Of a stretch of DNA of 64,000 nt, positions 8,124 to 57,388 are shown piece after piece. Source of the stretch: Alphaproteobacteria bacterium (lineage in GTDB: Bacteria; Pseudomonadota; Alphaproteobacteria; UBA7887). Position 1 is the first letter of the stretch. Each line of letters begins with the position of its first letter. Below the pieces are notes generated by a model. The model saw only the letters and a list, made by a program, of their open reading frames with translations, was not told the origin of the DNA and did not search any database. Both the position numbers and the translations under genes were made by a program. The stretch is taken from contig OZ241350.1 of assembly GCA_965200095.1 (NCBI GenBank), positions 1,912,215-1,976,214 of the forward strand, given 5' to 3'.

Positions 8124-8552
8124 ATGGCGCAGGCCGAATGCGCGGAGATGCTGCGCCGCGCCGGAATGCGGCGCACGCGCCAGCGTCTGGCGCTCGCGCG
8201 GCTGATCGCCGAGGGCGGCGACCGGCACCTGTCGGCGGAAGCGCTGCACCGCGAAGCGCAGCGCGCCGGATGCGCCGTGTCGGTGGCGACGGTCTACAAC
8301 ACCCTGCACCGTTTCGTCGATGCGGGGCTGTTGCGCGAGATCGCCGTCGCGCCCGGCTGCGTCCGCTTCGATACGAACACCGAGCATCACCATCATTTCT
8401 ACGACGAGGAAACCGGCGCGCTGAGCGATATCCCCGGCGATGCGGTGAGGCTGGAGAAACTGCCCGCGCCGCCGGCGGGGCGCCGGGTCGGGCGGGTCGA
8501 GGTGGTGGTGCGGCTGGTCGGTCGCGACGGGCGCGCGCCGTCTGAATTATAA
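8124..8552 (+). CDS. Fur family transcriptional regulator (PerR/Irr-like)
   Basis: TRQRLALARLIAEGGDRHLSAEALHREAQ...VSVATVYNTLHRFVDAGLL forms a Fur-type winged helix. An HHHH metal-site region follows. Lies upstream of rubrerythrin. Confidence 0.7.
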   Translation: MAQAECAEMLRRAGMRRTRQRLALARLIAEGGDRHLSAEALHREAQRAGCAVSVATVYNTLHRFVDAGLLREIAVAPGCVRFDTNTEHHHHFYDEETGALSDIPGDAVRLEKLPAPPAGRRVGRVEVVVRLVGRDGRAPSEL

Positions 8553-8631
8553 TCGTTCCAAACTATTGACAGGCGGCGGCGGCGCGTCCATATGGGAGGT
8601 CCACCCTGACCGGAACCGGAGGAGGAAACCG

Positions 8632-9048
8632 ATGCCATTGGGCGGCAGCAAGACGGAAGACAACCTGAAGGCGGCGTTCGCGGGGGAGAGCCAGGCGAAC
8701 CGGCGCTACCTGTATTTCGCGCAGAAGGCGGACGTGGAGGGCTACAACGACGTGGCGACCGTGTTCCGCTCCACGGCTGAGGGCGAGACGGGTCACGCCT
8801 TCGGACATCTCGAATATCTGAGCGAAACCGGCGACCCGGCGACCGGCGAGCCGATCGGCGGCACCGACAACAATCTCAAGGCGGCGATCGCCGGGGAGAC
8901 GCACGAATACACCGACATGTATCCCGGCATGGCGCGCACGGCCCGCGAGGAAGGGTTCGAGGAGATCGCGGACTGGTTCGAGACTCTCGCGAAAGCCGAG
9001 AAGTCTCACGCCGGGCGGTTCCGGAGGGCGCTCGACACGCTCGACTAG
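8632..9048 (+). CDS. rbr: rubrerythrin family protein (ferritin-like diiron domain only)
   Basis: [24 protein letters not shown] and a second EXXH-type half ([13 protein letters not shown]). The RBS GGAGGA lies 7 nt upstream of the ATG. Confidence 0.8.
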
Positions 9049-9115
9049 GGGCGACGCCGCGCGGCCGAGAAGCGGCCCCGCGGCAGCGCCTCGCCACGAT
9101 GCGCGAGGTTCGGTC

Positions 9116-10462: not shown

Positions 10463-11049
10463 TGCCCGCACGGCTGCTGACGCGCGCCGACGTGATGGCG
10501 ATGGAGGACTATGCGGAAGTGCGTCGCGAAAAACGGCGGGCGCTGTCGGCGCTGCGCCGCCTGCGCCGGGTGGAAGTGGGTCCGCACGCCTCGCTGAGTT
10601 TCGAGAACCGCGAGACGGTGTGGATGCAGGTTCACGAGATGCTTTATGTGGAGCGCGGCGGCGAGGCGCAGATCGCCGACGAGCTCGCGGCCTACAACCC
10701 CCTGATCCCGCGCGGGAGCGAGCTGGTGGCGACGCTGATGTTCGAGATCGACGAACCGCGGCGCCGGGCGGCGTTCCTCGGTTCGGCAGGCGGGATCGAA
10801 CGCACTGTGGCGCTGCATATCGGCGACCTGGCGGCGCCGGCGGCGCCGGAAGGGGACATTGAGCGCACGACGGCGGCGGGCAAGGCTTCGGCGGTGCACT
10901 TCCTGCGCTTCGCCCTGACGCCGGACCGGATATCGGCGTTTCGCGACCCGGCGCAGAAGGTCACGGCAGCTATCGCGCATCCGGCCTACGACCATGCCGC
11001 GACGCTCGGCGCCGCCGCGCGCCGGTCGCTGGCCGCCGATCTGGATTGA
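10459..11049 (+). CDS. DUF3501 family protein
   Basis: Start overlaps the upstream stop (ATGA). The rubrerythrin/(Fe-S) CCG protein/DUF3501 arrangement is a conserved cluster. Confidence 0.55.
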   Translation: MMPARLLTRADVMAMEDYAEVRREKRRALSALRRLRRVEVGPHASLSFENRETVWMQVHEMLYVERGGEAQIADELAAYNPLIPRGSELVATLMFEIDEPRRRAAFLGSAGGIERTVALHIGDLAAPAAPEGDIERTTAAGKASAVHFLRFALTPDRISAFRDPAQKVTAAIAHPAYDHAATLGAAARRSLAADLD

Positions 11050-11087
11050 CCGCCGCCGGTCCGAAGGCGGCGCGCGAGGAGGACGCC

Positions 11088-11570
11088 ATGAAGATCGAGG
11101 GGCTGCATCACAACGCTTACCGTTGCCGCGATTCCGAGGAGACGCGGGCGTTCTACGAAGATTTCCTCGGCCTTCCGCTCGCCGAGGCGCTGCCCATCGG
11201 CAAGACCGCGACGGGGCGCCGGGCGCAGGTGTTGCATACGTTCTACCGGATGGGGGACGGCTCGTTTCTGGCGTTTTTCGAGGCGCCCGATGAGCCGTTC
11301 GAGTTCAGGGAACAGCGCGATTTCGACCTGCATATTGCGCTCGAAGTGTCCGGGGGCGACCTGAAAACGGCGTTGCGCAAGGCGCGGGGGGAGGGGATCG
11401 AGGTCCGCGGCCCCACCGACCACGGCGCCATCGAGTCGATCTATCTGCGCGACCCGAACGGCTATGTCATCGAACTGTGCGCCCGGCGGCCGGGTTCCGG
11501 CGGGCCGGAGGCGCCGGCCGGACGGGCGCGGGCGGAGCTCGACGCCTGGCAGGCCGCCAAGGCGGCCTGA
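11088..11570 (+). CDS. VOC (glyoxalase/bleomycin-resistance/dioxygenase) family protein
   Basis: MKIEGLHHNAYRCRDSEETRAFYEDFLGL is a typical VOC N-terminus. Confidence 0.6.
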   Translation: MKIEGLHHNAYRCRDSEETRAFYEDFLGLPLAEALPIGKTATGRRAQVLHTFYRMGDGSFLAFFEAPDEPFEFREQRDFDLHIALEVSGGDLKTALRKARGEGIEVRGPTDHGAIESIYLRDPNGYVIELCARRPGSGGPEAPAGRARAELDAWQAAKAA

Positions 11571-16014: not shown

Positions 16015-16059
16015 CGTGGGGGCCCCGGCGTTCCCGCCCCCCGATCGGGCGAAGGGATC

Positions 16060-16320
16060 AAAACATCTCGCTATTCTCCATCGTTCCCGCGAAAAAGAGT
16101 GTGAAGAAATCGAACGGCCATACAAATACTCGTCATTCCCGCGAAAGCGGGAATCCATTGCGGCGTTTCCGCAAGAATAAAGACGAATTAGTCTTTCGGA
16201 TGTCCGCTCTGGATTCCCGCTTTCGCGGGAATGACGAAGAGCAGTGCGATCGCTCGATTTCTTCACACGCTCTTTCGCGGGAATGACGAAGTGAGGCGAG
16301 TTTATCCAGTCCCCTCGCAC
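16060..16320. repeat. second cluster of the ATTCCCGCGAAAGCGGGAAT palindromic repeat family
   Basis: Nearly identical to the 7075-7330 element pair, in direct and inverted copies. Confidence 0.8.
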
Positions 16321-16476
16321 ATTATTTCACGGCAATGCCGTCGACTGTCCCTCCGGCCCGATTTCTCCACACACCCTTTCGCGGGAACGAGAGAGTTCCA
16401 GGGTTTCACGGCTTCGGTCTTCCGGCGCGCGGCCTTTTTGCGCCCGTCCCGGTCGCCGGGCGCGCTGCGCATCCTT

Positions 16477-39971: not shown

Positions 39972-40641
39972 CGACGCATCGCTGTTCGCGCGCCTCCGCG
40001 CCTCGTGCGCGAAAGAATGGCGCGCCTATTGCCGTCATCGCTTCGTCGCCGGCATCGCCGACGGCAGCCTGCCGGAAGGCGCGTTCCGCCATTACCTCGT
40101 TCAGGACTATCTGTTCCTGATCCAGTTCGCCCGCGCTTATGCGCTCGCGGCGTACAAGGCGGACAGGGTAGAAGACATGCGCGCCGCCGCGACCACGCTT
40201 TCCGGCATTCTCGATACCGAAATGGGCCTGCATGTCCGCTATTGCGGAGAATGGGGACTCGACGAGGCGGAGATGGCGGCGACCCCGGAAGCGCTGGAGA
40301 CCGTCGCCTACACCCGCTTCGCGCTGGATTGCGGCCAGGCCGGCGATCTGCTCGATCTGCTCGTCGTCCTCGCGCCCTGCGTCGTGGGCTATGGCGAGAT
40401 CGGCCGGCGCCTCGGCGCCGACCCGGCAACGAAGCGCGAGGGCAACCCCTATGCGGGCTGGATCGAAACCTACGCCGCCGCCGACTACCGGGCGGTTGCC
40501 GACGGCGCGCGCGCGCAGCTCGACCGTCTCGCGGACAGGTCCGGCGCCGCGGCCCGTTTCCCGCGCCTGAGTGCGCTCTTCGCCCAGGCCACCCGGCTGG
40601 AGATCGGCTTCTGGGACATGGGCTGGGCGGCGGGCCGATGA
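39958..40641 (+). CDS. tenA: TenA family thiaminase II / aminopyrimidine aminohydrolase
   Basis: FRHYLVQDYLFLIQFARAYALAAYKA is a typical TenA helix. Catalytic Cys context VLAPCVVGYGEIG. Confidence 0.7.
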   Translation: MPPHDDASLFARLRASCAKEWRAYCRHRFVAGIADGSLPEGAFRHYLVQDYLFLIQFARAYALAAYKADRVEDMRAAATTLSGILDTEMGLHVRYCGEWGLDEAEMAATPEALETVAYTRFALDCGQAGDLLDLLVVLAPCVVGYGEIGRRLGADPATKREGNPYAGWIETYAAADYRAVADGARAQLDRLADRSGAAARFPRLSALFAQATRLEIGFWDMGWAAGR

Positions 40642-40836
40642 GGGAGCGGCGCCAGGGCATGGTTTCCCAATTTGTGGCGTGGCGTGCTTGACACGCCGTA
40701 TGATCGGCAATAGCCTGTGCGCGATTGGATAAATGTCCGACAGTCGTCGGGTCGTTACATGTATCTTGAACGGTTGCCCGACCACGCGACGGCAATGTGT
40801 CGATGCGTTCGCCGAAAAATAATGATGGAGGAGAAA

Positions 40837-41705
40837 ATGTCGAAGAAATCCAAGAAAGGTCCTGTCGTAGTATCGGTGATCAACCTTAAGGGCGGGGTTG
40901 GAAAAACAACGGTCGCGGCACTGCTGGCGAGGCATATCGCGAGGGAAAATTTGAATGTGCTGGCTGTGGATTTGGACCCGCAAGCAAATTTGAGTCAAGC
41001 TCTTATGACTGAAAGCGAGTACATCCAATTTATGCATAATAGAGAACCCTAACCATTGTGGAGCTCTTTAATGACTACATACCGCCGTCTCGTGACCGAG
41101 AGGCTCCTACTCGTTTGGACGACGACAAAATCGTGAAATCGGTAGGGTATGGAGAAAGACTGCACCTTATTCCGTCAAGATTTGATTTCTCCGATAATTT
41201 AATCTGTTCGAATAGCGTCGATGCCAGAATTTTTGCGAAATTCATTTCCAGAACCCCTAAAAATATGGACCTCGTCCTGATCGACTGTGCACCGACCGAG
41301 TCGATAATCACCAAAGCCGCCTATCATGCATCCCGTTACATCCTGCTTCCGGTGCGAACCGAATTTCTCTCGACCATTGGATTTCCCCTGTTGAATGAAT
41401 CTTTGAAGAAATTCAGATCCAACAATCCCGGCCATGATATCGATGTATGTGGCGTCCTGATCAATAACAGTAGAACAAGTGGATCTCCACGGGGGCCCCA
41501 TCATGATGATTCCCTGAACGACATCCGACAGAAGGCTGAAGAGTACGGCTGGCCGGTAATGGAAGAGCAGATGTTTCATTCCGACGGATACCCGAAGTTG
41601 ATGAAAGAGGAGTATCCTCATCATGTTGGAAATTCTTGGTATGAATTCCCGCCAATCGCCGAGGAATTTATGAAAACGGTCGGACTGTCTTCGCGGAGGA
41701 AGTGA
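40837..41705 (+). pseudogene. ParA/MinD-like ATPase interrupted by a frameshift and in-frame stop (TAA at 41048-41050)
   Basis: The N-terminal ORF has the deviant Walker A VINLKGGVGKTT and DLDPQANLS. The downstream ORF, in another frame, continues with LIPSRFDFSD and Walker B DLVLIDCAP. The region is low-GC relative to its flanks. Confidence 0.6.
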
Positions 41706-41707
41706 TC

Positions 41708-42190
41708 ATGCAGCGCGACACCCTGCGGAAATTGCTTTCCACCCTCATCGACGATTGCGGGTACGACGCGGTTCGTAAGTCCGTGGAAGCCCTCGATCCC
41801 GGAGCGGCGAGCGCCCGTGCTCCGCGAGGGGCGATTGATAAGAGAAGAGGAAGGCCGCGGGCGAAATTGACGGCGGTTGCCGTAGTGGATTCTTTGGGTA
41901 TTTCGGACGCGGAAAAGAAAGATGCGCTGATGGTTCTTGCACACAAATACGATGCGAAGGAATTTATGCCGAACATCAACCATATCCGTGCTTTCGTGGA
42001 GCGGGAAGGGGTTGACGTTTCCTGTGTCAGATCGAGACAACAGGCTACACATACGGTGTTCAGAAACCTGGGGAATTGGGAAACACGAAAATTGCAGGAA
42101 TTGGAGACGAGGGGCGCGTACGGTCGCCCGAAATCGCTTTCCGTTATCGCCGGCGCTATCGAATCCGTCGGGAGGCAAAATCGCCTTTAA
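41708..42190 (+). CDS. hypothetical protein (160 aa) with AT-hook-like KRRGRPRAK motif, translationally coupled to the ParA-like gene
   Basis: ATG lies 3 nt after the ParA-like stop, preceded by GGAGGAAG. No recognised family. Confidence 0.4.
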   Translation: MQRDTLRKLLSTLIDDCGYDAVRKSVEALDPGAASARAPRGAIDKRRGRPRAKLTAVAVVDSLGISDAEKKDALMVLAHKYDAKEFMPNINHIRAFVEREGVDVSCVRSRQQATHTVFRNLGNWETRKLQELETRGAYGRPKSLSVIAGAIESVGRQNRL

Positions 42191-45311: not shown

Positions 45312-45661
45312 GTCCCGTTTCCCGTCCCGCTTTCGTCTCCCCAGCATAGGGGCGGGCGGGCGGCGGCGAAAGCGCAATTCGCCGTCCGCCGTCGATAACG
45401 AAGGATACGGTTGCCCCATGCGCCGCGGGAGCTGTCCGTTTCCGGATCGCCGTCCGGCTTTCCGGTGATGCGCCGCACGGGCCAGCGCGGGGCGACACGC
45501 AAGCGCGACAGCGTCTCTCTGTGTCTCGCATGTGTCCGAACCGGGTCGGCGGGGCGTTGAACTCGCCGCGAAATTCGATTACCGGTTCCGGCGTCGGGAG
45601 ACGGGAGGGAATGCGACGATGATTATGAGCCTCGCGCCGCGCGCGTCCGGATCGTCGAAAT

Positions 45662-45689
45662 CCCCCCCCCCCCCCCCCCCCCCCCCCCC
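45662..45689. repeat. poly-C homopolymer (~28 nt) 26 nt upstream of the adhesin-A start codon
   Basis: Read directly: t + 28 c + g. Confidence 0.9.
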
Positions 45690-45715
45690 GCGCCGGTCGA
45701 TGGGGCGCGGCAAGG

Positions 45716-48700
45716 ATGATCCGCCGGGCCTGCGGGCTGCTGGCGCTGGCCTTCCTCGCCGCCGCGGCTCTTGCCGTCTTCCCTCGCACGGCAGAGGCGG
45801 TGTGCACCGTTAACGCCGCCACGTCGACCGAGGTAAATTTCAGAGCCTCGGCGATAACCTCCAGTTCAATCACGTTTTCGTGGAATCGGCCGTCATGCGC
45901 CAGCGGCGCCGTCTCATGGCGTGTTACCGGGGCCACCCTGACCGGCGGCGGCAACTGCTGCAGTCATGTGTATGCAGACGGTGGGACCATTTCCTCTTCG
46001 ACCGCGTCCGCGCTTGGATGGACGAAGACCGGGCTGAACGCCAATACGACCTACCACTGGCGGGTGCGTATCGACCAGCCGATCACCGAGCGATCCGACT
46101 TCTTCCCCCATAATGCCCGACTGAGCGTCACGACCAAACAGGCGTCGCCGGGGACTCCGGGCGGCGTGACGGTGACGCCGGGGGTAGGCCAGCTCGCCGT
46201 CTCCTGGACCGCCGCAACCAATGCCGGCGGCTACAAGGTGCAGTGGAAATCCGGTTCGCAAGCTTACGACGCCGCGCGTCAGGCGACAGTCGGCAGCGGA
46301 ACGAGCCACACCATTACGAGCCTGACCGCGGGGACCGTATACACCGTGCGGGTCATCGCGACGCGGACCAACGCCGACGACGGACCCGCCTCCGCAGAGC
46401 GGACCGGAACGCCCAAATACTCGCCGCCGGGGACTCCGGGCGGCGTGACAGTGACGCCGGGGGTAGGCCAGCTCGCCGTCTCCTGGACCGCCGCAACCAA
46501 TGCCGGCGGCTACAAGGTGCAGTGGAAGTCCGGCGCGCAGGCTTACGACGCCGCGCGTCAGGCGACAGTCGGCAGCGGAACGAGCCACACCATTACGAGC
46601 CTGACCGCGGGGACCGCATACACCGTGCGGGTCATCGCTACGCGGACCAACGCCGACGACGGACCCGCCTCCGCAGAGCGAACCGGAACCCCGAAGGCTG
46701 CGCCGCCGGGGACTCCGGGCGGCGTGACGGTGACGCCGGGGGTGGGCCAGCTCGCCGTCTCCTGGACCGCCGCAACCAATGCCGGCGGCTACAAGGTGCA
46801 GTGGAAATCCGGTTCGCAAGCATACGACGCCGCGCGTCAGGCGACAGTCGGGAGCGGAACGAGCCATGCTATTACCGGCCTCACCGCAGGGACCGAATAC
46901 ACCGTCCGGGTCATCGCGACGCGGAGCAATGCCGACGACGGACCCGCCTCCGCAGAGCGAACCGGAACCCCGAAGGCTGCGCCGCCGGGGACTCCGGGCG
47001 GCGTAACGGTGACGCCGGGAGTGGGCCAGCTTGCCGTCTCCTGGACCGCCGCGGCCAATGCCGACGGCTACAAGGTGCAGTGGAAATCCGGCTCGCAGAC
47101 TTACGACGCCGCGCGTCAGGCGACAGTCGGCAGCGGAACGAGCCACGCCATTACCGGCTTGAGCGCGGGGACCGAATACGCCGTGCGGGTCGTCGCGACG
47201 CGAAGCAATGCCGACGACGGACCCGCCTCCGCAGAGCGAACCGGAACGCCGAGGGCCGCGCCGTCGGGGGCGCCGGGCGGTGTGACGGTGACGCCGGGGG
47301 CGGGCCGGCTCGCCGTCTCCTGGACCGCCGTGACCGGCGCCGACGGCTACAAGGTGCAGTGGAAATCCGGCGCGCAGACTTACGATGCCGCGCGTCAGGC
47401 GACAGTCGGCGGCAGCACGAGCCACACTATCACCGGCCTCGCCGCGGGAACCGAATACACCGTGCGGGTCATCGCGACGCGAACCGACGCCGACGACGGA
47501 CCCGCCTCCGCAGAGCGAACCGGAACGCCCAAACAATCGCCGCCGGGGGCGCCGGGCGACGTAACGGTGACGCCGGAGGTGGGCCGGCTCGCCGTCTCCT
47601 GGACCGCCGCGACCGATGCCGACGGCTACAAGGTGCAGTGGAAATCCGGCTCGCAGACTTACGACGCCGCGCGTCAGGCGACGGTCGGCAGCGGAACGAG
47701 CCATGCCATTACCGGTCTGACCGCGGGGACCGAATACACCGTGCGGGTCATCGCGACGCGCAGCAACGCCGACGACGGACCCGCCTCCACAGAGCAAACC
47801 GGAACGCCGACGACAGGCAGGATCGATCTGTCGGCGCCGACTCTCGCCGTGACGGCGGGCGGCGCCGGGGAGACCTACACGGTGGTTCTGGGCGCAGCGC
47901 CGGATGGCGACGTCACCGTCGCAATAGCGAGCGACAACGGCGATGTGACGGCGACTCCCGACAGCCTCTCCTTCACGGCGTCGGACTGGAGCGCGCCGCA
48001 GACGGTGACGTTAACTGCGGCGGCGGACGATGACGGCTACGCCGATATGGCGTCGCTGACGCATACGGCGTCGGGCGGCGGTTACGACGGGGTGACGGGG
48101 ACGCTGCCCGTGGCGGTGACGGGCGACAGCAAGGTGAGGGTGGGCGGCGCGGGCGAGACGGTCTACCGGATCCGCGGTCGGACGGTGACGGTGGCGGTGA
48201 TGCCCGGCACGCCGGCGGGCATTGAGATCGACCTTGCGGACCTGCCCGAAGCGCCTTCGGGCGAGGCTCTGACGCTGACCTTCGCGCCTGTGGCGTCTCC
48301 GGCGGCGAGCGACGCTTTCGCCTTCGGGCCGCCGGAGTCGCGGACCGTTGTGGATGTGACGGTGACGGCGGGGCGCGTTTCGTCTCCGGGTCTGCGTCTG
48401 TGCCTTCCGGTTGCGGATGCGGCGCGGGATGCGGCGCGGGGTCGTCCGTTGCTGTTGCTGCGTTACGACGGCAGCGCCTGGGGCGCGGTCGCCGGGTCTG
48501 CGGCGAGCGCGGACGGGTCGCTTGTGTGCGCCGATGGCGTGTCGTCGTTTTCGCCGTTTGCGGTTGGGTATGCGGACACGGCGCCGTCGTTTGCGGCGGA
48601 TGCGGCCATCGCGGCGCTGGCGTTCACGGCGGGCGAGGCCATTGAGCCTGTGACCTTGCCTGCGGCGACGGGGGGCGACGGGACGTTCTACGAGCTGGGT

Positions 48701-50269
48701 CCGCGGCCATTGGCGCTGCCGCCGGGTCTGGATATCGACGATGCGACGCGGGTTCTTTCGGGGACGCCGACGGAGGCGTTCGCGCAGCGTCGCTACACAT
48801 GGACGGCGACGGACATCGACGGGGAGAGCGATACGCTGTCGTTCACGATGGAGGTGCTGCCGGCGCTTGCGGCGGCGCGGGAGCGTTTGCGGGCGGTGAA
48901 CGAGTCGGTTCTGCCGGAGTTGTCGCGGGCGATGTGGGGGAGCGTCATCGATGCGCTGACGGGGCGCCTTGAGAGCGCGGGTCTTTCGGTCGGCGACGGC
49001 GCGGGCGTCGCGGCGTCGGGTCTTGCGGGGGCTTCGGAGTTCCTGCGGTCGAACGATGGCGCGCCTGGGGCGGGTTCTGGTTCGTGGCGGGAGTTGCTGG
49101 CGGGCGAATCCTTCGTGCTGGGCGTGGGTTCGGAAGCGGGCGGCGGCGGCGGCGGTTCGCCGGTAATGGTCTGGGGTTCGGGGGACTGGCGCAAACTGTC
49201 GCTGGACGATGCGGTTCTGGACTGGTCCGGGGAGTTGCTCTCGGCGCATGCGGGGGTGGATGCGCGGCTTGGCGGGAGTGTTCGCGGCGGCGTTGCGGCG
49301 TCATGGTTCGAGAGTGAGATCGACTACACGGATCGCAGCGGCGAGGCGGCGGTTTCGGGCGTTCACGAGAGCCGGCTGCCGGCGGTGCATCCCTGGGCGG
49401 GGTGGTTCGGCTCGGACGGCTCGCGTCTGTGGGGGGTGCTGGGCTATGGCGAGGGCGAGGTCGAGATAGCGGATGCGGACCTTGCGGAGCGTTTCGGGGT
49501 CCAGAAGAGCGACAGCGCGTTTCTGGCGGCGGCGGCGGGGGGTTCGGTTCCGGTTGCGTCGTCCGGCGTGTTTGCGCTTGCGCTGAAGGGTTCGGGGGAG
49601 GCGACGCGCTATTCGGTGGAGGACAACGGCGCGGCGATTGCGGCGGTGTCTGTGGACACGCAGCGGTTGCGGCTGTCTGCGACGGGCAGCCGGCGCTGGG
49701 TTCTGGCGGACGGCGGGACGCTTACGCCGTCGCTGGAGGCGGGGGCGCGCTGGGACGGCGGCGACGGGGAGACGGGCGCAGGCGTGGAGTTGGGGGGCGG
49801 CGTGGAGTGGACGCTTCCGTCGCATGGCCTGGCGGTTGCGGCGCGGGGCCGGACGCTGGCGGCCCATGCGGGCGCTGCGGAGGAATGGGGCGTGTCGGGT
49901 TCGGCGCGGCTTTCGCCGCCCGGCGGGCGCGGTCTGTCTCTGGCGCTGTCGCCGCGCTGGGGGGCTTCGGACAGCGGCCTGTCGCGTCTGTGGGACGAGG
50001 GCGTTGCGGGGCGCGGGTCTCCGGTCGGCGGAAGCGACGCGGGCGCGGCGGGTCTGGAGGCGGAGTTGGGCTACGGGTTCCGCGAGGGGGCCGGTCTGCT
50101 GACGCCGTCTGCGGGGTTCGGCTACGGGGACGGCGGCGCGCGGCGCTGGCTGGTGGGAACGCGGTTCGAGCTCGGCCCGGCGCTTGCGGTCTCGGTGGCG
50201 ACCGAACGCCGCGACGGCGCCGCCGACGCCGGACACGCCCTCCGCATCGACCTGCGCATGAACTGGTAG
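45716..50269 (+). CDS. giant secreted repeat protein A (1517 aa): signal peptide, 7 FN3-like domains, Calx-beta/cadherin-like and He_PIG-like domains, C-terminal autotransporter-like beta-barrel
   Basis: Signal peptide MIRRACGLLALAFLAAAALAVFPRTAEA. FN3-like units of ~93 aa ending YTVRVIATR. Calx-like segment VTVAIASDNGDVTATPDSLSFTASDW. Helical linker LPALAAARERLRAVNESVLPEL. C-terminus LRIDLRMNW shows an alternating hydrophobic pattern and a terminal Trp. Confidence 0.8.
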   Translation: MIRRACGLLALAFLAAAALAVFPRTAEAVCTVNAATSTEVNFRASAITSSSITFSWNRPSCASGAVSWRVTGATLTGGGNCCSHVYADGGTISSSTASALGWTKTGLNANTTYHWRVRIDQPITERSDFFPHNARLSVTTKQASPGTPGGVTVTPGVGQLAVSWTAATNAGGYKVQWKSGSQAYDAARQATVGSGTSHTITSLTAGTVYTVRVIATRTNADDGPASAERTGTPKYSPPGTPGGVTVTPGVGQLAVSWTAATNAGGYKVQWKSGAQAYDAARQATVGSGTSHTITSLTAGTAYTVRVIATRTNADDGPASAERTGTPKAAPPGTPGGVTVTPGVGQLAVSWTAATNAGGYKVQWKSGSQAYDAARQATVGSGTSHAITGLTAGTEYTVRVIATRSNADDGPASAERTGTPKAAPPGTPGGVTVTPGVGQLAVSWTAAANADGYKVQWKSGSQTYDAARQATVGSGTSHAITGLSAGTEYAVRVVATRSNADDGPASAERTGTPRAAPSGAPGGVTVTPGAGRLAVSWTAVTGADGYKVQWKSGAQTYDAARQATVGGSTSHTITGLAAGTEYTVRVIATRTDADDGPASAERTGTPKQSPPGAPGDVTVTPEVGRLAVSWTAATDADGYKVQWKSGSQTYDAARQATVGSGTSHAITGLTAGTEYTVRVIATRSNADDGPASTEQTGTPTTGRIDLSAPTLAVTAGGAGETYTVVLGAAPDGDVTVAIASDNGDVTATPDSLSFTASDWSAPQTVTLTAAADDDGYADMASLTHTASGGGYDGVTGTLPVAVTGDSKVRVGGAGETVYRIRGRTVTVAVMPGTPAGIEIDLADLPEAPSGEALTLTFAPVASPAASDAFAFGPPESRTVVDVTVTAGRVSSPGLRLCLPVADAARDAARGRPLLLLRYDGSAWGAVAGSAASADGSLVCADGVSSFSPFAVGYADTAPSFAADAAIAALAFTAGEAIEPVTLPAATGGDGTFYELGPRPLALPPGLDIDDATRVLSGTPTEAFAQRRYTWTATDIDGESDTLSFTMEVLPALAAARERLRAVNESVLPELSRAMWGSVIDALTGRLESAGLSVGDGAGVAASGLAGASEFLRSNDGAPGAGSGSWRELLAGESFVLGVGSEAGGGGGGSPVMVWGSGDWRKLSLDDAVLDWSGELLSAHAGVDARLGGSVRGGVAASWFESEIDYTDRSGEAAVSGVHESRLPAVHPWAGWFGSDGSRLWGVLGYGEGEVEIADADLAERFGVQKSDSAFLAAAAGGSVPVASSGVFALALKGSGEATRYSVEDNGAAIAAVSVDTQRLRLSATGSRRWVLADGGTLTPSLEAGARWDGGDGETGAGVELGGGVEWTLPSHGLAVAARGRTLAAHAGAAEEWGVSGSARLSPPGGRGLSLALSPRWGASDSGLSRLWDEGVAGRGSPVGGSDAGAAGLEAELGYGFREGAGLLTPSAGFGYGDGGARRWLVGTRFELGPALAVSVATERRDGAADAGHALRIDLRMNW
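46141..47820 (+). repeat. six near-perfect 279-bp tandem repeats (one FN3-like domain each) inside adhesin A
   Basis: Repeat starts at about 46147, 46426, 46705, 46984, 47263 and 47542. Identity drifts only slightly between copies. Confidence 0.85.
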
Positions 50270-50344
50270 CGACCGGCGCGCGCGGCGACGGCGCGGGTGC
50301 GCGATACGACCGACGGGAAATCGAGGCGGCGCCGGGCGCGCGCC

Positions 50345-50614
50345 CTACACGACGCCGAACAGGCGCGCGGCCATCGCCAGAACGATCGCGAACATGAAGC
50401 CGAGCACCCACTTGACGGCCCACAATTCCGCCTTGACGGCGCCGATGTCACCCTTGAGTTCGGCTCTGAGTTCGGCGATGTCGCCCTTGGTGGCGACGCC
50501 CTCGCTCACCGCCTTGCGCACGGTTATGGCGATGGCCTTGGCTTGCGGCTCGGGCAGACCCGTGCGGGTCAAGGCCTCGGCCGCCTCCAGCGTGTCGAAC
50601 AACTCAGTGGACAT
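50345..50614 (-). CDS. DUF1640-like coiled-coil protein with C-terminal TM anchor, copy 1 (89 aa; two 11-mer repeats)
   Basis: MSTELFDTLEAAEALTRTGLPEPQAKAIAITVRKAV ... KGDIAELRAELKGDIGAVKAEL ... WVLGFMFAIVLAMAARLFGVV matches the DUF1640 N-terminus, 11-mer repeats and terminal TM. The start was trimmed from ORF 50345..50683. Confidence 0.6.
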   Translation of the reverse strand: MSTELFDTLEAAEALTRTGLPEPQAKAIAITVRKAVSEGVATKGDIAELRAELKGDIGAVKAELWAVKWVLGFMFAIVLAMAARLFGVV

Positions 50615-50644
50615 GCCGCGTCTTCTACGCCCGGTATCGGGGAC

Positions 50645-50673
50645 TGTCAAGCCGCCTGCGCTCACGGCGCAGG
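50645..50673 (-). promoter_or_regulatory. candidate promoter (-35 TTGACA) with an abutting inverted-repeat operator CCTGCGCTCACGGCGCAGG upstream of DUF1640 copy 1
   Basis: On the minus strand: palindrome, TTGACA, 17 nt, TAGAAG, 7 nt, ATG. There is no SD. Repeated upstream of copies 2 and 3. Confidence 0.4.
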
Positions 50674-50990
50674 GCAATCGCACTTGGGCGTCATTTTGGG
50701 TTGGGGTTTAGGGGTTTTGGTTGAGCGGATCGTGTCGAGGAGGAAGTTGTTGTCCCATCCGGCGCGCTTGAGTTTTCCTCGCATGGCGTCTTTTCCGGGT
50801 TCGATGCGCGCGACGTTCAGGGCCATGCGGCGCAGCAGTGCGAGGTTCTCCGGCCCATTCCCGGTGCGGTTGCGCTGCCGATCCTCGTTCATGGTCACGT
50901 CCAATACCCAATGCAACGAGTTCCCGATCGCCCAATGGCCGCGCACCGCGTGCCGGAAGCGCTCCGGGGAGAGTTCGGCGCCCATGATGT
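50662..50990 (-). pseudogene. ISAs1/IS4-like transposase C-terminal fragment
   Basis: HWAIGNSLHWVLDVTMNEDRQRNRTGNGPENLALLRRMALN matches the conserved DDE-transposase C-terminus. The upstream catalytic part is missing. Confidence 0.5.
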
Positions 50991-51387
50991 AGTAGCGCGT
51001 CTCGGTTGTCGTCCCGGTTCGGGTCTCGATGCGCCCGCGGCTGCCGTAGGTGTCTCGATGGCGCCGTCGGCCCGCATCCCCTGCGCCGGGCTGTCCGGGT
51101 AGAGTTTCGAGTCTCCTCTCACGGTCGCCCGTGCCCCCTGTTTCCATGATGGCGCTTGCGATGGCGACGCCGCTATCGGTCGGTCATGGAAATCGGGCGG
51201 CGGTTGCTTTCCGGCAGCGTCCGGGTTGCCGTAGCGAACGGCGTTGTCGATGCGTCTTGACATGCGGTCGAAATCGGGTTACCGGTGCGGGCCATAATTC
51301 ATGAAGGTGGGGGCGATGGATGTCGGTAATCTCTCGGCCGGAACGCGGCGGCGAACCGGACGCCGGTTTACGATGTCGCCCCTGAAT

Positions 51388-51405
51388 CCCCCCCCCCCCC
51401 CCCCC
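51388..51405. repeat. poly-C homopolymer (18 nt) inside the 5' end of the adhesin-B reading frame
   Basis: ccc + cccccccccc + ccccc, read directly. Confidence 0.9.
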
Positions 51406-51428
51406 GCGCCTTCGTCGCGGCGGCGTGG

Positions 51429-54400
51429 TTGGCTTTTCTGTTCGTCGCAGCGGCGCAGCCGGCCGTCGCGGCGGAGTGGATCCATAGCCCGTCTCCGGCG
51501 ATCCTGTATAAAAGCAGCCTGAATAACGCGCAAGTTTATTTGGCGCTGGATGGAAACTCGCCCCGTTTCAAAGTCACCAGCGATCTGAATACAAACAGAA
51601 GCACCTGGTTCGCCTTGTCGGGCGTCCCCAGCGGGGTCACTCTCTCGGTCAGCGCCGTTGTCGGTCAAACCTCGCCGCATCAGGGCGCCTTGTTGACGTT
51701 GAGCTATAGCGGCAATTTCACCAGCGACTGGGTCCTTACGATCACGGTCCCTTCGGCGGCCTTCTTCACAAGGGCGCGCCAGGTGGTCTACACGATCCCG
51801 GTGCAGACGGACAATACGAAAAGCCTGTGGACGGGGGCAGTATCGGGCCAGGCGACGGAAGCCGGGGGACAGGCGACGTTCCCGGTGCGGCTGCGGGCGG
51901 CGCCTTCGCAGGACGTAACCGTGACGGTAACGAGCCGGGATACGGGCGAGGGCTCGGTATCGCCGTCCACGCTCACCTTCAGCTCTTCGAATTGGCACAC
52001 GCCGCAGACTGTGACGGTGACCGGCGTGGACGATAACGTGGACGACGGCACTCAAAACTGGAACGTCCGCCTCGATCCGTCGAGCGCCGATACGACCTAT
52101 AACGGCCTGACGAACGTGGACGTGGCGGTAACCACCACGGACAATGACGCCCTACCGACGGCGACGCTGTCGCTGAGCCAGTCTTCGATTTCCGAGAACG
52201 GCGGTTCTGCGACAGTGACCGCGGCGCTCTCGCATCCGTCGAGTGGGGCGACGGCGCTGACGGTGGCGGCTTCGCCGGGTTCGGGGACGGATTTCACACA
52301 GACGGGAACGACGCTGAACATCGCTGCGGGGGCGACGAGCAGCACCGGAACGGTGACCATCGCAGCAACCAACAATAGCGTCGACGCGCCGGACAAGAGC
52401 GTGACGGTCTCGGCGACGGCGAGCGGGGCCAGCAACGTCGCGAACCCGTCGTCGGTGACGCTGACGCTGACGGACGACGAGGCGGCGCCGACGGCGACGC
52501 TGGCGTTGTCGAACAATTCGATTCCGGAGAACGGCGGGACATCGACGGTGAGCGCGACGCTGTCGCACGCCTCCAGCGCGTCTTCGACGATCACCGTTTC
52601 GACGGGGACGGGGTTCACCCTGGGTTCGGCGACGACGTTGAATATCGCGGCGGGAGCGACGAGCAGCAGCGGGACGGTGACGCTCACGGCGGATAACGAC
52701 AACGTGCATTCGGGAGACCGGTCGGTCACGGTGACGGGTTCGATGGCGAACACCCAGGGCGCGGGTTCCGTGACGGGGGCTTCGTTGACGATCGAGGAAG
52801 ACGAGGCGTTGCCGACGGCGACGCTGGCGTTGTCGCGTTCGAGCATCGACGAGAGCGGGGCGGACGGCGGTTCGACGGTGACCGCCGGCCTGAGCGGCGC
52901 GTCGAGCGAAGCGACGGTGCTGACGGTGTCGACGTCTCCGGGCGCCGACACGGTCGCAGGCGACTTCACGCAGTCGGGAACGGTGCTGACCATTGCGGCG
53001 GGGGAGACGTCCAGCACCGGCGCGGTGACGATCGCGGCCGTGGACAACGATGCCGACACGCCGAACAAGAGCGTGACGGTCTCGGCGACGGCGGCCGGAG
53101 GCAACGGCGTCGCGGATCCGTCCCCCCTGACGCTGACAGTGACGGACGATGAGGGGCCGCCGACGGTGACGCTGTCGCTGTCGCCGCCGTCGATCGACGA
53201 GAACGGGGGCGTGACGCGGGTGTCGGCGACGCTCTCGCGCCCGTCGGCCGTGGAGACGACGGTAACGGTGTCGGCGTCCCCGGGCGCTGACGCGGTTGCA
53301 GGCGACTTCGCCCTGAGTTCGAACAAGACGCTGACCATCGCCGCGGGAGCGACGACCGGCGCCGGAACGGTGACGATCGCGGCCGTGGACAATGATGTCG
53401 ACGCGCCGGACAAGAGCGTGACGGTTTCGGGCGCGGCGTCGAACGCTGTGGCCGAGGCTGCCGGGCAGACCGTGGCCGTGACCGGAGCGACGCTGACGGT
53501 GACGGACGACGACGAGACGGGGATGCTCATCGCGCCGTCGTCGCTCGTCGCGGAAGCGGGCGGCGCCGGGACGGAGTACACGGTCGTACTCGCCAGCGAG
53601 CCCGTCGGCGACGTGACGGTGGCGATAGCGAGCGACTCGGCGGAAGTGACGGTCAGCCCCGACAGTCTTGTCTTCACGGCGTCGGACTGGAGCGCGCCGC
53701 AGACGGTGACGTTAACCGCAGCGGCGGACGATGACGGTTACGCCGATGCGGCGTCGCTGACGCATACGGCGTCGGGCGGCGGTTACGACGGGGTGACGGG
53801 GACGCTGCCCGTGGCGGTGACGGGCGACAGCAAGGTGAGGGTGGGCGGCGCGGGCGAGACGGTTTACCGGATCCGCGGTCGGACGGTGACGGTGGCGGTG
53901 ATGCCCGGCACGCCGGCGGGCATTGAGATCGACCTTGCGGACCTGCCCGAAGCGCCTTCGGGCGAGGCTCTGACGCTGACCTTCGCGCCTGTGGCGTCTC
54001 CGGCGGCGAGCGACGCTTTCGCCTTCGGGCCGCCGGAGTCGCGGACCGTTGTGGATGTGACGGTGACGGCGGGGCGCGTTTCGTCTCCGGGTCTGCGTCT
54101 GTGCCTTCCGGTTGCGGATGCGGCGCGGGATGCGGCGCGGGGTCGTCCGTTGCTGTTGCTGCGTTACAACGGCGACGCCTGGGGCGCGGTCGCCGGGTCT
54201 GCGGCGAGCGCGGACGGGTCGCTTGTGTGCGCCGATGGCGTGTCGTCGTTTTCGCCGTTTGCGGTTGGGTATGCGGACACGGCGCCGTCGTTTGCGGCGG
54301 ATGCGGCCATCGCGGCGCTGGCGTTCACGGCGGGCGAGGCCATTGAGCCTGTGACCCTGCCTGCGGCGACGGGGGGCGACTGGACGATCCACGAGCTGGG

Positions 54401-55970
54401 TCCCCGGCCATTGGCGCTGCCGCCGGGTCTGGGTTTCGACCGTGACACGCGGGTTCTTTCGGGGACTCCGACGGAGGCGTTCGCGCAGCGTCGCTACACA
54501 TGGACGGCGACGGACATCGATGGGGAGAGCGATACGCTGTCGTTCACGATGGAGGTGCTGCCGGCGCTTGCGGCGGCGCGGGAGCGTTTGCGGGCGGTGA
54601 ACGAGTCGGTTCTGCCGGAGTTGTCGCGGGCGATGTGGGGGAGCGTCATCGATGCGCTGACGGGGCGCCTTGAGAGCGCGGGTCTTTCGGTCGGCGACGG
54701 CGCGGGCGTCGCGGCGTCGGGTCTTGCGGGGGCTTCGGAGTTCCTGCGGTCGAACGATGGCGCGCCTGGGGCGGGTTCTGGTTCGTGGCGGGAGTTGCTG
54801 GCGGGCGAATCCTTCGTGCTGGGCGTGGGTTCGGAAGCGGGCGGCGGCGGCGGCGGTTCGCCGGTAATGGTCTGGGGTTCGGGGGACTGGCGCAAACTGT
54901 CGCTGGACGATGCGGTTCTGGACTGGTCCGGGGAGTTGCTCTCGGCGCATGCGGGGGTGGATGCGCGGCTTGGCGGGAGTGTTCGCGGCGGCGTTGCGGC
55001 GTCATGGTTCGAGAGTGAGATCGACTACACGGATCGCAGCGGCGAGGCGGCGGTTTCGGGCGTTCACGAGAGCCGGCTGCCGGCGGTGCATCCCTGGGCG
55101 GGGTGGTTCGGCTCGGACGGCTCGCGTCTGTGGGGGGTGCTGGGCTATGGCGAGGGCGAGGTCGAGATAGCGGATGCGGACCTTGCGGAGCGTTTCGGGG
55201 TCCAGAAGAGCGACAGCGCGTTTCTGGCGGCGGCGGCGGGGGGTTCGGTTCCGGTTGCGTCGTCCGGCGTGTTTGCGCTTGCGCTGAAGGGTTCGGGGGA
55301 GGCGACGCGCTATTCGGTGGAGGACAACGGCGCGGCGATTGCGGCGGTGTCTGTGGACACGCAGCGGTTGCGGCTGTCTGCGACGGGCAGCCGGCGCTGG
55401 GTTCTGGCGGACGGCGGGACGCTTACGCCGTCGCTGGAGGCGGGGGCGCGCTGGGACGGCGGCGACGGGGAGACGGGCGCAGGCGTGGAGTTGGGGGGCG
55501 GCGTGGAGTGGACGCTTCCGTCGCATGGCCTGGCGGTTGCGGCGCGGGGCCGGACGCTGGCGGCCCATGCGGGCGCTGCGGAGGAATGGGGCGTGTCGGG
55601 TTCGGCGCGGCTTTCGCCGCCCGGCGGGCGCGGTCTGTCTCTGGCGCTGTCGCCGCGCTGGGGGGCTTCGGACAGCGGCCTGTCGCGTCTGTGGGACGAG
55701 GGCGTTGCGGGGCGCGGGTCTCCGGTCGGCGGAAGCGACGCGGGCGCGGCGGGTCTGGAGGCGGAGTTGGGCTACGGGTTCCGCGAGGGGGCCGGTCTGC
55801 TGACGCCGTCTGCGGGGTTCGGCTACGGGGACGGCGGCGCGCGGCGCTGGCTGGTGGGAACGCGGTTCGACCTCGGCCCGGCGCTTGCGGTCTCGGTGGC
55901 GACCGAACGCCGCGACGGCGCCGCCGACGCCGGACACGCCCTCCGCATCGACCTGCGCATGAACTGGTAG
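51429..55970 (+). CDS. giant secreted repeat protein B (about 1513 aa from TTG): 5 Calx-beta-like domains plus the shared Calx/He_PIG/linker/beta-barrel module; apparently phase-OFF
   Basis: Calx-beta-like units [25 protein letters not shown]...NIAAGATSSTGTVTIAA...DKSVTVSATA. The last ~900 aa are near-identical to protein A and end LRIDLRMNW. The in-frame ORF begins only at TTG 51429, in the middle of a signal-peptide h-region. The ATG at 51373 (MSPLN-polyP) is out of frame by one C. Confidence 0.75.
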   Translation: MAFLFVAAAQPAVAAEWIHSPSPAILYKSSLNNAQVYLALDGNSPRFKVTSDLNTNRSTWFALSGVPSGVTLSVSAVVGQTSPHQGALLTLSYSGNFTSDWVLTITVPSAAFFTRARQVVYTIPVQTDNTKSLWTGAVSGQATEAGGQATFPVRLRAAPSQDVTVTVTSRDTGEGSVSPSTLTFSSSNWHTPQTVTVTGVDDNVDDGTQNWNVRLDPSSADTTYNGLTNVDVAVTTTDNDALPTATLSLSQSSISENGGSATVTAALSHPSSGATALTVAASPGSGTDFTQTGTTLNIAAGATSSTGTVTIAATNNSVDAPDKSVTVSATASGASNVANPSSVTLTLTDDEAAPTATLALSNNSIPENGGTSTVSATLSHASSASSTITVSTGTGFTLGSATTLNIAAGATSSSGTVTLTADNDNVHSGDRSVTVTGSMANTQGAGSVTGASLTIEEDEALPTATLALSRSSIDESGADGGSTVTAGLSGASSEATVLTVSTSPGADTVAGDFTQSGTVLTIAAGETSSTGAVTIAAVDNDADTPNKSVTVSATAAGGNGVADPSPLTLTVTDDEGPPTVTLSLSPPSIDENGGVTRVSATLSRPSAVETTVTVSASPGADAVAGDFALSSNKTLTIAAGATTGAGTVTIAAVDNDVDAPDKSVTVSGAASNAVAEAAGQTVAVTGATLTVTDDDETGMLIAPSSLVAEAGGAGTEYTVVLASEPVGDVTVAIASDSAEVTVSPDSLVFTASDWSAPQTVTLTAAADDDGYADAASLTHTASGGGYDGVTGTLPVAVTGDSKVRVGGAGETVYRIRGRTVTVAVMPGTPAGIEIDLADLPEAPSGEALTLTFAPVASPAASDAFAFGPPESRTVVDVTVTAGRVSSPGLRLCLPVADAARDAARGRPLLLLRYNGDAWGAVAGSAASADGSLVCADGVSSFSPFAVGYADTAPSFAADAAIAALAFTAGEAIEPVTLPAATGGDWTIHELGPRPLALPPGLGFDRDTRVLSGTPTEAFAQRRYTWTATDIDGESDTLSFTMEVLPALAAARERLRAVNESVLPELSRAMWGSVIDALTGRLESAGLSVGDGAGVAASGLAGASEFLRSNDGAPGAGSGSWRELLAGESFVLGVGSEAGGGGGGSPVMVWGSGDWRKLSLDDAVLDWSGELLSAHAGVDARLGGSVRGGVAASWFESEIDYTDRSGEAAVSGVHESRLPAVHPWAGWFGSDGSRLWGVLGYGEGEVEIADADLAERFGVQKSDSAFLAAAAGGSVPVASSGVFALALKGSGEATRYSVEDNGAAIAAVSVDTQRLRLSATGSRRWVLADGGTLTPSLEAGARWDGGDGETGAGVELGGGVEWTLPSHGLAVAARGRTLAAHAGAAEEWGVSGSARLSPPGGRGLSLALSPRWGASDSGLSRLWDEGVAGRGSPVGGSDAGAAGLEAELGYGFREGAGLLTPSAGFGYGDGGARRWLVGTRFDLGPALAVSVATERRDGAADAGHALRIDLRMNW

Positions 55971-56390
55971 CGGCCGACCCGCAAGGCGGGTGTGCGATAC
56001 GACCGACGGGAAATCGATGCGGCGCCGGGCGCGCGCCCTACACGACGCCGAACAGGCGCGCGGCCATCGCCAGAACGATCGCGAACATGAAGCCGAGCAC
56101 CCACTTGACGGCCCACAATTCCGCCTTGACGGCGCCGATGTCACCCTTGAGTTCGGCCCTGAGTTCGGCGATGTCGCCCTTGAGTTCGGCTCTGAGTTCG
56201 CTGATGTCGCCCTTGGTGGCGACGCCCTCGCTCACCGCCTTGCGCACGGTTATGGCGATGGCCTTGGCTTGCGGCTCGGGCAGACCCGTGCGGGTCAAGG
56301 CCTCGGCCGCCTCCAGCGTGTCGAACAACTCAGTGGACATGCCGCGTCTTCTACGCCCGGTATCGGGGACTGTCAAGCCGCCAGCAATTC
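53670..56390. repeat. segmental duplication copy 2
   Basis: See 47970-50690. Confidence 0.85.
56038..56340 (-). CDS. DUF1640-like protein, copy 2 (100 aa; three 11-mer repeats)
   Basis: Same N- and C-termini as copy 1. Has KGDISELRAELKGDIAELRAELKGDIGAVKAEL. Confidence 0.6.
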   Translation of the reverse strand: MSTELFDTLEAAEALTRTGLPEPQAKAIAITVRKAVSEGVATKGDISELRAELKGDIAELRAELKGDIGAVKAELWAVKWVLGFMFAIVLAMAARLFGVV

Positions 56391-56569: not shown

Positions 56570-56980
56570 CTACACGACGCCGAACAGACGCGCGGCCATC
56601 GCCAGAATGATCGCGAACATGAAGCCGAGCACCCACTTGACGGCCCACAATTCCGCCTTGACGGCGCCGACCTCACCCCTGAGTTCGCCGATGTCGCCCT
56701 TGAGTTCGCCGATGTCGCCCTTGAGTTCGGTTCTGAGTTCGCCGATGTCGCCCTTGAGTTCGGTTCTGAGCTCGCCGATGTCACCCTTGAGTTCGGCCCT
56801 GAGCTCGCCGATATCGCCCTTGAGTTCGGTTCTGAGCTCGCCGACATCGCTCTTCGTGGCAACGCCCTCGCTCACCGCCTTGCGCACGGTTATGGCGATG
56901 GCCTTGGCTTGCGGCTCGGGCAGACCGGCGCGGGTCAAGGCCTCGGCCGCCTCCATGGTGTCGAACGACGTAGCGGACAT
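56570..56980 (-). CDS. DUF1640-like protein, copy 3 (136 aa; about seven 11-mer and 8-mer repeats)
   Basis: MSATSFDTMEAAEALTRAGLPEPQAKAIAITVRKAV, then GELRTELKGDI repeated with 33-bp DNA periodicity, then the same TM tail. Confidence 0.6.
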   Translation of the reverse strand: MSATSFDTMEAAEALTRAGLPEPQAKAIAITVRKAVSEGVATKSDVGELRTELKGDIGELRAELKGDIGELRTELKGDIGELRTELKGDIGELKGDIGELRGEVGAVKAELWAVKWVLGFMFAIILAMAARLFGVV

Positions 56981-57388
56981 GCCGCTTCGTCTACCCCCGG
57001 CATCGGAGACTGTCAAGCCGCTTGCGCTCCCGGCGGTTCCCGTCGCGGCGACCGGCGCCGCTCGCCGCATCCGGCAGGCGTCGGCGCGGCAGGCGGGCGC
57101 CCCGGCCGAACCGCCGGATTTTTTCACGCGGTCCTTCGCAGAACGAGCATATCGGAGCAACGACAACCCGTATCGAACCGGGGCGCCCGCTCATCCTGTC
57201 GTCGTCTCGCGACACCGCCGGAAGTCCGCTCGAACAGGCGAGCGCCGGGCCGTGACCGGCCCCCCCCCGAAAAATCCGGGCGTTATGCAGGAGTTCCGAC
57301 GCGCAATTCGCTCCCGGCTTGCGCCGGCGGCGAACGCCGCTATGCTGCGCGTTCTCCGATGCGGAAGCGACCCGCAAAAGGCATCCCC

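Follow-up and report, generated by a model that had tools for sequence, protein, structure and literature searches.

In the classical picture of autotransporters, beta-helical passengers are carried by 12-strand barrels and folding of the helix outside the cell drives secretion. Reviews of type V secretion describe beta-helical passengers for the autotransporters, with EstA as the structural exception, and assign immunoglobulin (Ig)-like passengers to the inverse (type Ve) class (PMC6555100, PMC9289746, PMC3419190). For Ig-like passengers of the intimin type, secretion is thought to be driven by the sequential folding of the domains (PMC6555100). In none of the three reviews is a C-terminal barrel said to carry passengers of the FN3, Calx or He_PIG type. 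Our literature search brought up no publication that deals with such proteins, with autotransporter barrels of larger size or with phase variation by homopolymers in sponge symbionts. Here we analysed two giant genes, A and B, in a stretch of 64,000 nt (G+C ~70%) from an Alphaproteobacteria bacterium (assembly GCA_965200095.1, contig OZ241350.1, positions 1,912,215 to 1,976,214), hereafter called the window. We consider it likely that A and B are paralogues in a very large, uncharacterised branch of type V proteins, in which a Sec signal, a chain of Ig-like domains, a three-domain stalk, a 39-residue helix and a PF03797-related barrel follow one another. On the same reading the two genes are homogenised, carry poly-C tracts at their 5' ends and encode proteins exported as adhesin rods.

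The coordinates of both genes and of their parts are given in Table 1. A first-pass annotation of this DNA had described two giant open reading frames (ORFs) with different passengers on a near-identical C-terminus, and coordinates, Pfam matches and BLASTP agree with that description. Residues 705-1517 of A and 700-1513 of B are identical at 785 of 814 positions (96%); the shared module therefore measures 814 aa and not the ~900 aa originally estimated. With Pfam, gene A gave seven fn3 stretches (196.7 bits) together with He_PIG at aa 967-1047, while the full-length protein of gene B gave Calx-beta (34.5 bits) and a LapA domain (41.9 bits). Consequently, the seven FN3 domains proposed for A were recovered, but the five Calx-beta repeats proposed for B turned out to be one Calx-beta domain and four LapA-type repeats. 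The latter reach the 41.9 bits of PF20579 over the whole protein and 15-27 bits singly, just below threshold, and are 73-88% identical to each other as DNA. The NCBIfam scan returned nothing useful, and an exact-sequence look-up of protein A gave no match.

Over their whole length, passenger and stalk consist of FN3, Calx-beta, LapA-type, He_PIG and other Ig-like sandwiches. Pfam, piecewise scans and a fold comparison all bear out the earlier statement that the passengers are Ig-like and contain no beta-helix; the type V reviews list no such passengers for type Va. The He_PIG domain resembles the cadherin-like modules of SraP both by sequence (E 8e-15) and by fold. At its N-terminus, protein A starts with MIRRACGLLALAFLAAAALAVFPRTAEA, a predicted Sec-type signal peptide read off the translation, and the first FN3-like domain that follows forms the distal tip.

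The C-terminal end of the module has the features of an outer-membrane barrel. Both proteins finish in ...HALRIDLRMNW, with alternating hydrophobic residues and an aromatic last residue; the LRIDLRMNW ending was noticed in the first reading and is present in both translations. When the tail was searched alone, PF03797 matched with 29.3 bits for a 460-aa tail and 30.3 bits for a 395-aa tail (cutoff 26). The same family matched 23 of 37 homologous tails, the best with an E of 2.7e-11. Residues 1040-1517 were modelled with AlphaFold2 from a 57-sequence alignment, with a mean predicted local distance difference test (pLDDT) score of 77. The model shows a helix and then a barrel, with pLDDT values of 85-97 over the first ten strands. 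By DSSP it contains 18 long strands joined by short turns, one short strand and one disordered loop of 27 aa. The autotransporter-like barrel claimed for the C-terminus is thus supported by a PF03797 score above cutoff and by the predicted helix and barrel, although it may not be the canonical one of 12 strands. Counting the strands in a structure prediction had been proposed as a check, and it gave a barrel-like result with 18 long strands, a count that comes from DSSP and not from three-dimensional coordinates. In both A and B the barrel is the extreme C-terminus, whereas a type Ve protein has an N-terminal barrel and a C-terminal Ig-like passenger.

Giant adhesins of the type I secreted kind typically carry LapA-domain and Calx-beta repeats, and the barrel is atypical for type Va. 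Both facts would fit an arrangement in which the barrel is a mere outer-membrane anchor and the Ig-like chain is periplasmic or is exported in another way, for example by type I secretion as for LapA. We regard this as very unlikely. The N-terminal signal peptides are of the Sec type, the Pfam output contains neither an RTX family nor a C-terminal type I signal, and a C-terminal barrel with an aromatic last residue and a long helix before it is the layout of an autotransporter. In addition, the neighbours of A and B in the window are housekeeping genes, with no secretion genes nearby.

We also determined how widely the module occurs. The tail of the module had 439 word-indexed homologues, and a genome scan located 48 family loci in metagenome-assembled genomes (MAGs) of Alphaproteobacteria, Gammaproteobacteria, Arenicellales, Nitrospirales, Binatia, Thalassobaculaceae and others. 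Ten of the 48 loci come from a single genome of 3.55 Mb, and open frames of more than 3,800 aa are numerous. An exhaustive phmmer search against 1.84 billion representatives of clusters formed at 50% identity retrieved 6,411 at E<=1e-3, 5,066 at 1e-10 and 1,538 at 1e-30. Nearly all of the best 150 matches end at the C-terminus or a few residues from it, in proteins of up to 7,149 aa. The passengers of other members contain Calx-beta, or seven He_PIG domains together with Big_9 and Cadherin_5, or no recognised family. Several homologues are annotated in databases with PF03797 together with PF05345, PF00041 or PF03160; since this combination is already on record, the architecture is unstudied rather than unseen. 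A and B thus represent only two of the many paralogues in a huge gene family. Their description as a variable surface-adhesin system rather than two ordinary genes was in this respect overstated, while the adhesin role is kept as a proposal.

Two related loci from independent assemblies, L049 and L051, allowed a closer comparison. The flanks of L049 are 91-93% identical to the window, with FemAB-like, aminotransferase and YjgF genes on one side and EipB-like and DinB genes on the other. Between yjgF and eipB this locus has a single family gene with B-like repeats. The LapA-type DNA repeats of B are 74-75% identical to those of L049, and the N-terminal domain of B, as judged by eye, looks like part of the passenger of the L049 protein. 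L051 contains an orthologue of gene A that is 93% identical over window positions 45391-50294 and lies at another chromosomal site, between DUF3800 and PBP1A genes. The presence/absence comparison suggested at the outset thus shows one gene at the L049 locus and the A cassette at another site in L051. To judge from titles and taxa, the related MAGs may be those of sponge symbionts.

The DNA of the shared module was compared in the same way. By blastn, positions 47855-50489 and 53556-56182 are 97.4% identical over 2,638 bp, with 54 mismatches and 10 gaps. The duplicated DNA extends ~390 bp past the stop codon, to 50656 and 56382, and takes in a small minus-strand gene. Divergence is graded at the 5' edge, amounting to 20-37% across 47855-48050, and the other differences between the copies form small patches at 48467-48474 and 48656-48820 and a cluster right after the stop codon. 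Over the shared module, A is 97.6% identical to B, compared with 93.2% to its L051 orthologue, and the identity between B and the syntenic gene of L049 is 81.5%. If only the first 200 columns are taken, A agrees with L051 at 94%, compared with 79% for B. In the columns of the 1,349-bp stretch that is free of differences, A and B are each only 89-97% identical to L051. With A nearer to B than to the A orthologue, and with a 5' boundary that is gradual, the pattern points to gene conversion or concerted evolution and not to one clean duplication. The first-pass annotation had seen a recent segmental duplication of 2.7 kb; recent homogenisation holds, but a single duplication event is disfavoured. 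On the evidence of these alignments, the translocation unit of A and B is homogenised within the genome, by gene conversion or by very recent copy-and-paste or duplication. Passengers are swapped among family members, and the A/B tandem pair is specific to this lineage.

A perfectly identical stretch of 1.35 kb could also result from an assembly artefact, that is, a repeat that was collapsed or falsely duplicated. We find this extremely improbable, since the copies differ in their passengers and flanks, the 54 mismatches and 10 gaps are distributed as a graded 5' boundary and mosaic patches, and a transposase remnant separates the copies. Moreover, both passenger types are found in the independent assemblies L049 and L051. 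The transposase remnant is probably the scar of the rearrangement behind the tandem pair.

Within the passenger of A, the FN3 array is indeed built from six 279-bp units, but the term near-perfect that had been applied to them was too strong, as their pairwise identity is only 85.7-94.6%. Identical in-register runs of 25-77 bp occur among the units. No variation in FN3 copy number was seen in the one orthologue recovered (L051), which also has six units. A metagenome scan with the N-terminal domain of A gave no matches, and a homologue search with its N-terminal 145 aa found none at E<=1e-10. Repeat number does vary in another set of genes in the window. The CCDC90-like copies 1, 2 and 3, which have a C-terminal transmembrane helix, hold 1, 2 and ~5 units, respectively, of an 11-aa (33-bp) KGDIxELRxEL repeat, and copies 1 and 2 travel with the duplicated autotransporter tail.

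Long poly-C tracts slip readily, a property of contingency loci. A contingency locus has a long homopolymer at the 5' end or promoter of a surface-protein gene, and such a homopolymer is present at both genes (C28 and C18) and, as 12 distinct tracts, at the 5' ends of family genes in other loci. At the position of the gene A tract, C28 in the window corresponds to C17 in the L051 orthologue and to C12 in the syntenic L049. In 1.09 Mb of sequence, comprising related family loci and the window, there were 23 tracts of at least 11 C. Among them are 12 distinct tracts, from several genomes, that immediately precede the signal-peptide-like start of a giant ORF. For gene B the true start is likely ATG 51373, upstream of its poly-C. 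Read from this ATG with 16 or 19 C, the protein begins MSPLN-Pn-RAFVAAAWLAFLFVAAAQPAVA and continues with AEW, whereas the assembled 18 C is out of frame; a full signal peptide is obtained only with a tract of 16 or 19 nt. There is no ATG or GTG between the tract and the signal-peptide core, and the frame of gene B therefore depends on the length of the tract. Switching by poly-C is plausible and is backed by the comparison between genomes.

Several observations weigh against the assignment of A and B to switched, putatively surface-exposed type V adhesins. The PF03797 score is barely over threshold and the family is absent from the listing for the full-length protein. Searches of the barrel against Protein Data Bank (PDB) sequences with phmmer and with profiles returned only spurious matches to TbiB1 and antibody heavy chains, the A1 profile matched only passenger domains in the PDB, and when the barrel profile of the family was aligned by hhalign to the beta-domain of EspP (sequence as in 2QOM), the probability was 1%. 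The barrel region has 368 aa and 18 DSSP strands, compared with ~250 aa and 12, and a 60-aa segment of low confidence follows the helix. For these reasons, the geometry may not be that of a canonical type Va protein, and the modelled barrel may not be one of 12 strands.

The C-terminal domain could instead be an enlarged barrel of ~18 strands, descended from autotransporters and functionally distinct, whose pore would be wider and closed by the long helix together with the 60-aa linker; it would then define a new type V subclass adapted to the export or anchoring of Ig-like chains. We hold this to be possible, though not probable. The 18 long DSSP strands have short turns and the right parity, with the first strand starting and the last one ending on the periplasmic side. 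Positions 5-205 of the 255 in the PF03797 profile map to the first 206 aa of the barrel region, about ten strands, and so use up the profile; 162 residues remain after this part, compared with ~50 in the canonical domain. The region is ~115 aa longer than canonical, equivalent to a beta-domain ~45% longer, and the full region of ~395 aa is kept in 72 of 84 homologues and in the best 150 representatives. Furthermore, a hairpin from within PF03797 (profile 114-145) shows a weak similarity to the final 79 aa (E 0.004), a hint of hairpin accretion. On the other hand, the strand count was taken from DSSP, the pLDDT falls to 65-85 over the extra strands, and Foldseek gave weak, non-discriminating barrel matches in the PDB, with TM (template modelling) scores of 0.32-0.34 to 18-strand porins. 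An hhalign comparison of the last six or seven strands with the first eleven found no internal duplication, and the extra strands could be a cap or excursion on a 12-strand barrel.

A second group of objections concerns the tracts. Homopolymer lengths in long-read assemblies are error-prone. In the assembled sequences, none of the reading frames that start at the upstream ATGs of A, B and L049 is in register with its ORF, and the upstream ATG of gene A (45619) would be in frame only at 27 or 30 C. In gene A, moreover, an ATG and an entire signal peptide follow the tract, and the gene could be translated at any tract length. Since the assembled upstream frames fail and gene A has its own ATG, the action of the tracts may be transcriptional, translational or none. 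If none, the tracts would be tolerated 5' untranslated or poly-proline features of a GC-rich genome, and A and B would be ordinary constitutive paralogues. The tracts stand in no consistent frame to upstream ATGs, and a sigma-70 promoter scan found no promoter. We nevertheless regard the absence of switching as unlikely. Tracts of 12-30 C are highly prone to slippage, 12 or more family genes of several genomes have one at this location, their orthologous lengths differ (28, 17 and 12 C), and the gene B frame is sensitive to length. A metagenome scan with the exact pattern around the poly-C gave no matches.

Other homopolymers were also noted. A third poly-C, of 9 C, lies at window positions 57260-57268, downstream of the CCDC90-like genes and upstream of an EipB-like ORF. 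In related MAGs, poly-G tracts of 14-30 nt follow family genes closely on the 3' side or precede neighbouring genes on the minus strand (L007 11504-11521, L009 11486-11499 and L009 5058-5087). Because of these positions, homopolymers in the related MAGs may not be confined to the 5' ends of family genes.

Taking A and B as type V proteins with Ig-like passengers, a course of export can be proposed by analogy with characterised type V systems. After Sec export, the barrel would be placed in the membrane by the barrel assembly machinery (BAM) via the C-terminal aromatic beta-signal. We infer that the helix would end up in the pore of the barrel and that the passenger would thread outward from C to N. 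Movement of the Ig-like chain to the surface would be powered by the Ig-like domains folding one after another outside, He_PIG first, as for the passengers of inverse autotransporters. The outcome would be a long rod of ~10-11 domains that shows a variable tip and probably serves as an adhesin, with A and B presenting different tips on the same stalk. Replication slippage at the 5' poly-C tracts would lead to stochastic switching of each paralogue.

Table 1. Positions of genes A and B, their parts and adjacent features in the window
Feature	Position	Strand	Remarks
Poly-C tract, 28 C	45662-45689	+	26 nt upstream of gene A ATG
Gene A	45716-50269	+	1517 aa: signal peptide, seven FN3 domains, three Ig-like stalk domains, helix, beta-barrel
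Predicted Sec signal peptide of A, MIRRACGLLALAFLAAAALAVFPRTAEA	45716-45799	+	read from the translation
Divergent first FN3-like domain of A, cysteine-rich	45800-46145	+	fn3 27.8 bits (cutoff 25), Pur_ac_phosph_N 26.7 bits
Six 279-bp units of A, each one 93-aa FN3 domain	46146-47819	+	Tandem Repeats Finder: period 279, 6.0 copies at 46146-47808, 90% matches
Stalk domain 1, Calx-beta-like sandwich, aa 700-804	47813-48127	+	shared module begins here
Copy 1 of duplicated/converted segment	47855-50656	+	C-terminal module of A, intergenic stretch, small downstream gene; blastn and identity map
Stalk domain 2, beta-sandwich without Pfam family, aa 805-960	48128-48595	+	
Stalk domain 3, He_PIG (cadherin-like Ig)	48596-48859	+	directly precedes helix
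Difference-free stretch, 1,349 bp	48821-50169	+	versus copy 2 at 54522-55870; spans helix and whole barrel
Alpha-helical linker, 39 residues, aa 1050-1088	48863-48979	+	AlphaFold2 helix at model residues 11-49, pLDDT 90-94
Gly/Ala-rich segment, ~60 aa, helix to first long strand	48980-49162	+	AlphaFold2 pLDDT 34-67
C-terminal beta-barrel region of A, 368 aa	49163-50266	+	ends in beta-signal-like LRIDLRMNW
CCDC90-like/DUF1640 gene copy 1, 89 aa	50345-50614	-	C-terminal transmembrane helix; PF07798 21.7 bits, below threshold
DDE transposase remnant, C-terminal part only	50665-51147	-	between A and B; PF01609 23.9 bits (cutoff 23), profile 117-199 of 200
Poly-C tract, 18 C	51388-51405	+	gene B 5' end, between ATG 51373 and signal-peptide core
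Gene B	51429-55970	+	1513 aa open frame from TTG
N-terminal (distal) domain of B, ~115 aa	51474-51851	+	no Pfam family match
Calx-beta domain of B	51852-52136	+	PF03160 34.5 bits, cutoff 27, aa 142-236
Four LapA-type (Calx-like) repeats of B, ~110-120 aa each	52152-53531	+	PF20579
Copy 2 of duplicated/converted segment	53556-56382	+	C-terminal module of B and CCDC90-like copy 2
Barrel of B	54864-55967	+	inside copy 2 of shared segment
CCDC90-like gene copy 2	56038-56340	-	one extra 33-bp unit
CCDC90-like gene copy 3	56570-56983	-	~five 33-bp units; PF07798 36.6 bits, above threshold

Some further features were recorded in the window and in related loci. An ORF of 1,144 aa on the plus strand (3193-6627) contains N6_Mtase and Eco57I methylase domains and is likely a type IIG/IIL restriction-modification enzyme. 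Palindromic clusters resembling repetitive extragenic palindromes (REP) or miniature inverted-repeat transposable elements (MITE), with the core TCGTCATTCCCGCGAAAGCGGGAATCC, are present at window positions 7028-7840 and 16049-16395 and at 15024-15721 of L051. In L051 the same element family occupies 1.3 kb downstream of the gene A orthologue; such elements may be substrates for rearrangement. G+C falls to 0.56-0.60 at 40001-42000 and 6001-8000, against a background of 0.70. The dip at 6001-8000 coincides with the REP-like cluster, and that at 40001-42000 has no repeats, tRNA or Rfam match; scans for Rfam families and for tRNAs gave no result. The many ORFs that overlap in other frames of the window are composition artefacts. 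Among the related loci, L012 has at 1346-11434 a family member of 3,363 aa with a passenger that gave no Pfam match at E<=1e-5 and is thus a long piece of uncharacterised repeat protein.

Compared with described systems, A and B share with the type Va proteins EspP, Hbp, NalP, AIDA-I and EstA the order of signal peptide, passenger, helical linker and C-terminal barrel, an aromatic end and a PF03797 match above threshold. In contrast to type Va, their passengers are Ig-like sandwiches and lack both an autochaperone-type region and the beta-helix that is typical, though not obligatory, in that class. Their barrel region exceeds the canonical length by ~115 aa, is predicted to have 18 strands and is set apart from the helix by a 60-aa linker, and there is no sequence match to solved translocators. 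The Gly/Ala-rich segment of ~60 aa is likewise not found in canonical autotransporters. With the inverse autotransporters (type Ve; intimin and invasin) they share passengers of tandem Ig-like domains, and by analogy type Ve would be the best functional model for export of the passenger. Unlike type Ve, however, A and B have a C-terminal barrel, a signal peptide directly before the passenger and no periplasmic LysM-type domain. Repeat types are shared with Pseudomonas LapA, which is type I secreted, and with staphylococcal SraP (PF20579 and PF03160), as is the probable role of a long adhesive rod, but A and B use a Sec signal and a C-terminal outer-membrane barrel and not type I secretion or sortase anchoring.

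The family departs from the classical autotransporter picture in its size (>5,000 clusters), in proteins of up to 7,149 aa, in passengers made only of Ig-like domains and in a longer beta-domain. If these proteins are secreted in the type V way, they would widen the known range of cargo and provide a natural test of secretion driven by sequential folding. If the barrel is truly enlarged, it would represent a new subclass, and barrel size is the point most worth following. A more far-reaching version, which we consider rather unlikely, is that the family carries an ~18-strand barrel derived from autotransporters, to which a long helix acting as a plug and an additional linker belong, as a new type V subclass for Ig-like chains. 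Its members would then be large adhesin repertoires, switched by poly-C and undergoing gene conversion, in uncultured and probably host-associated marine bacteria.

The poly-C of the Bordetella fim promoter, the poly-C/G tracts of Neisseria opc and porA and gene conversion between Helicobacter babA and babB are well-known sources of surface variation. Such phase-variable outer-membrane families have, like the A/B family, homopolymers at their 5' ends, paralogues with gene-converted conserved 3' parts and variable exposed parts. The A/B family differs from them in that its tracts are unusually long (12-30 nt), its organisms are represented by MAGs of uncultured environmental or symbiont bacteria, and switching is putative. 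In uncultured Alphaproteobacteria and in other phyla the family has expanded to at least ten paralogues per genome. This expansion, the long poly-C tracts and the concerted evolution are hallmarks of variable repertoires for interaction with hosts or surfaces. Such repertoires are otherwise known mainly from pathogens.

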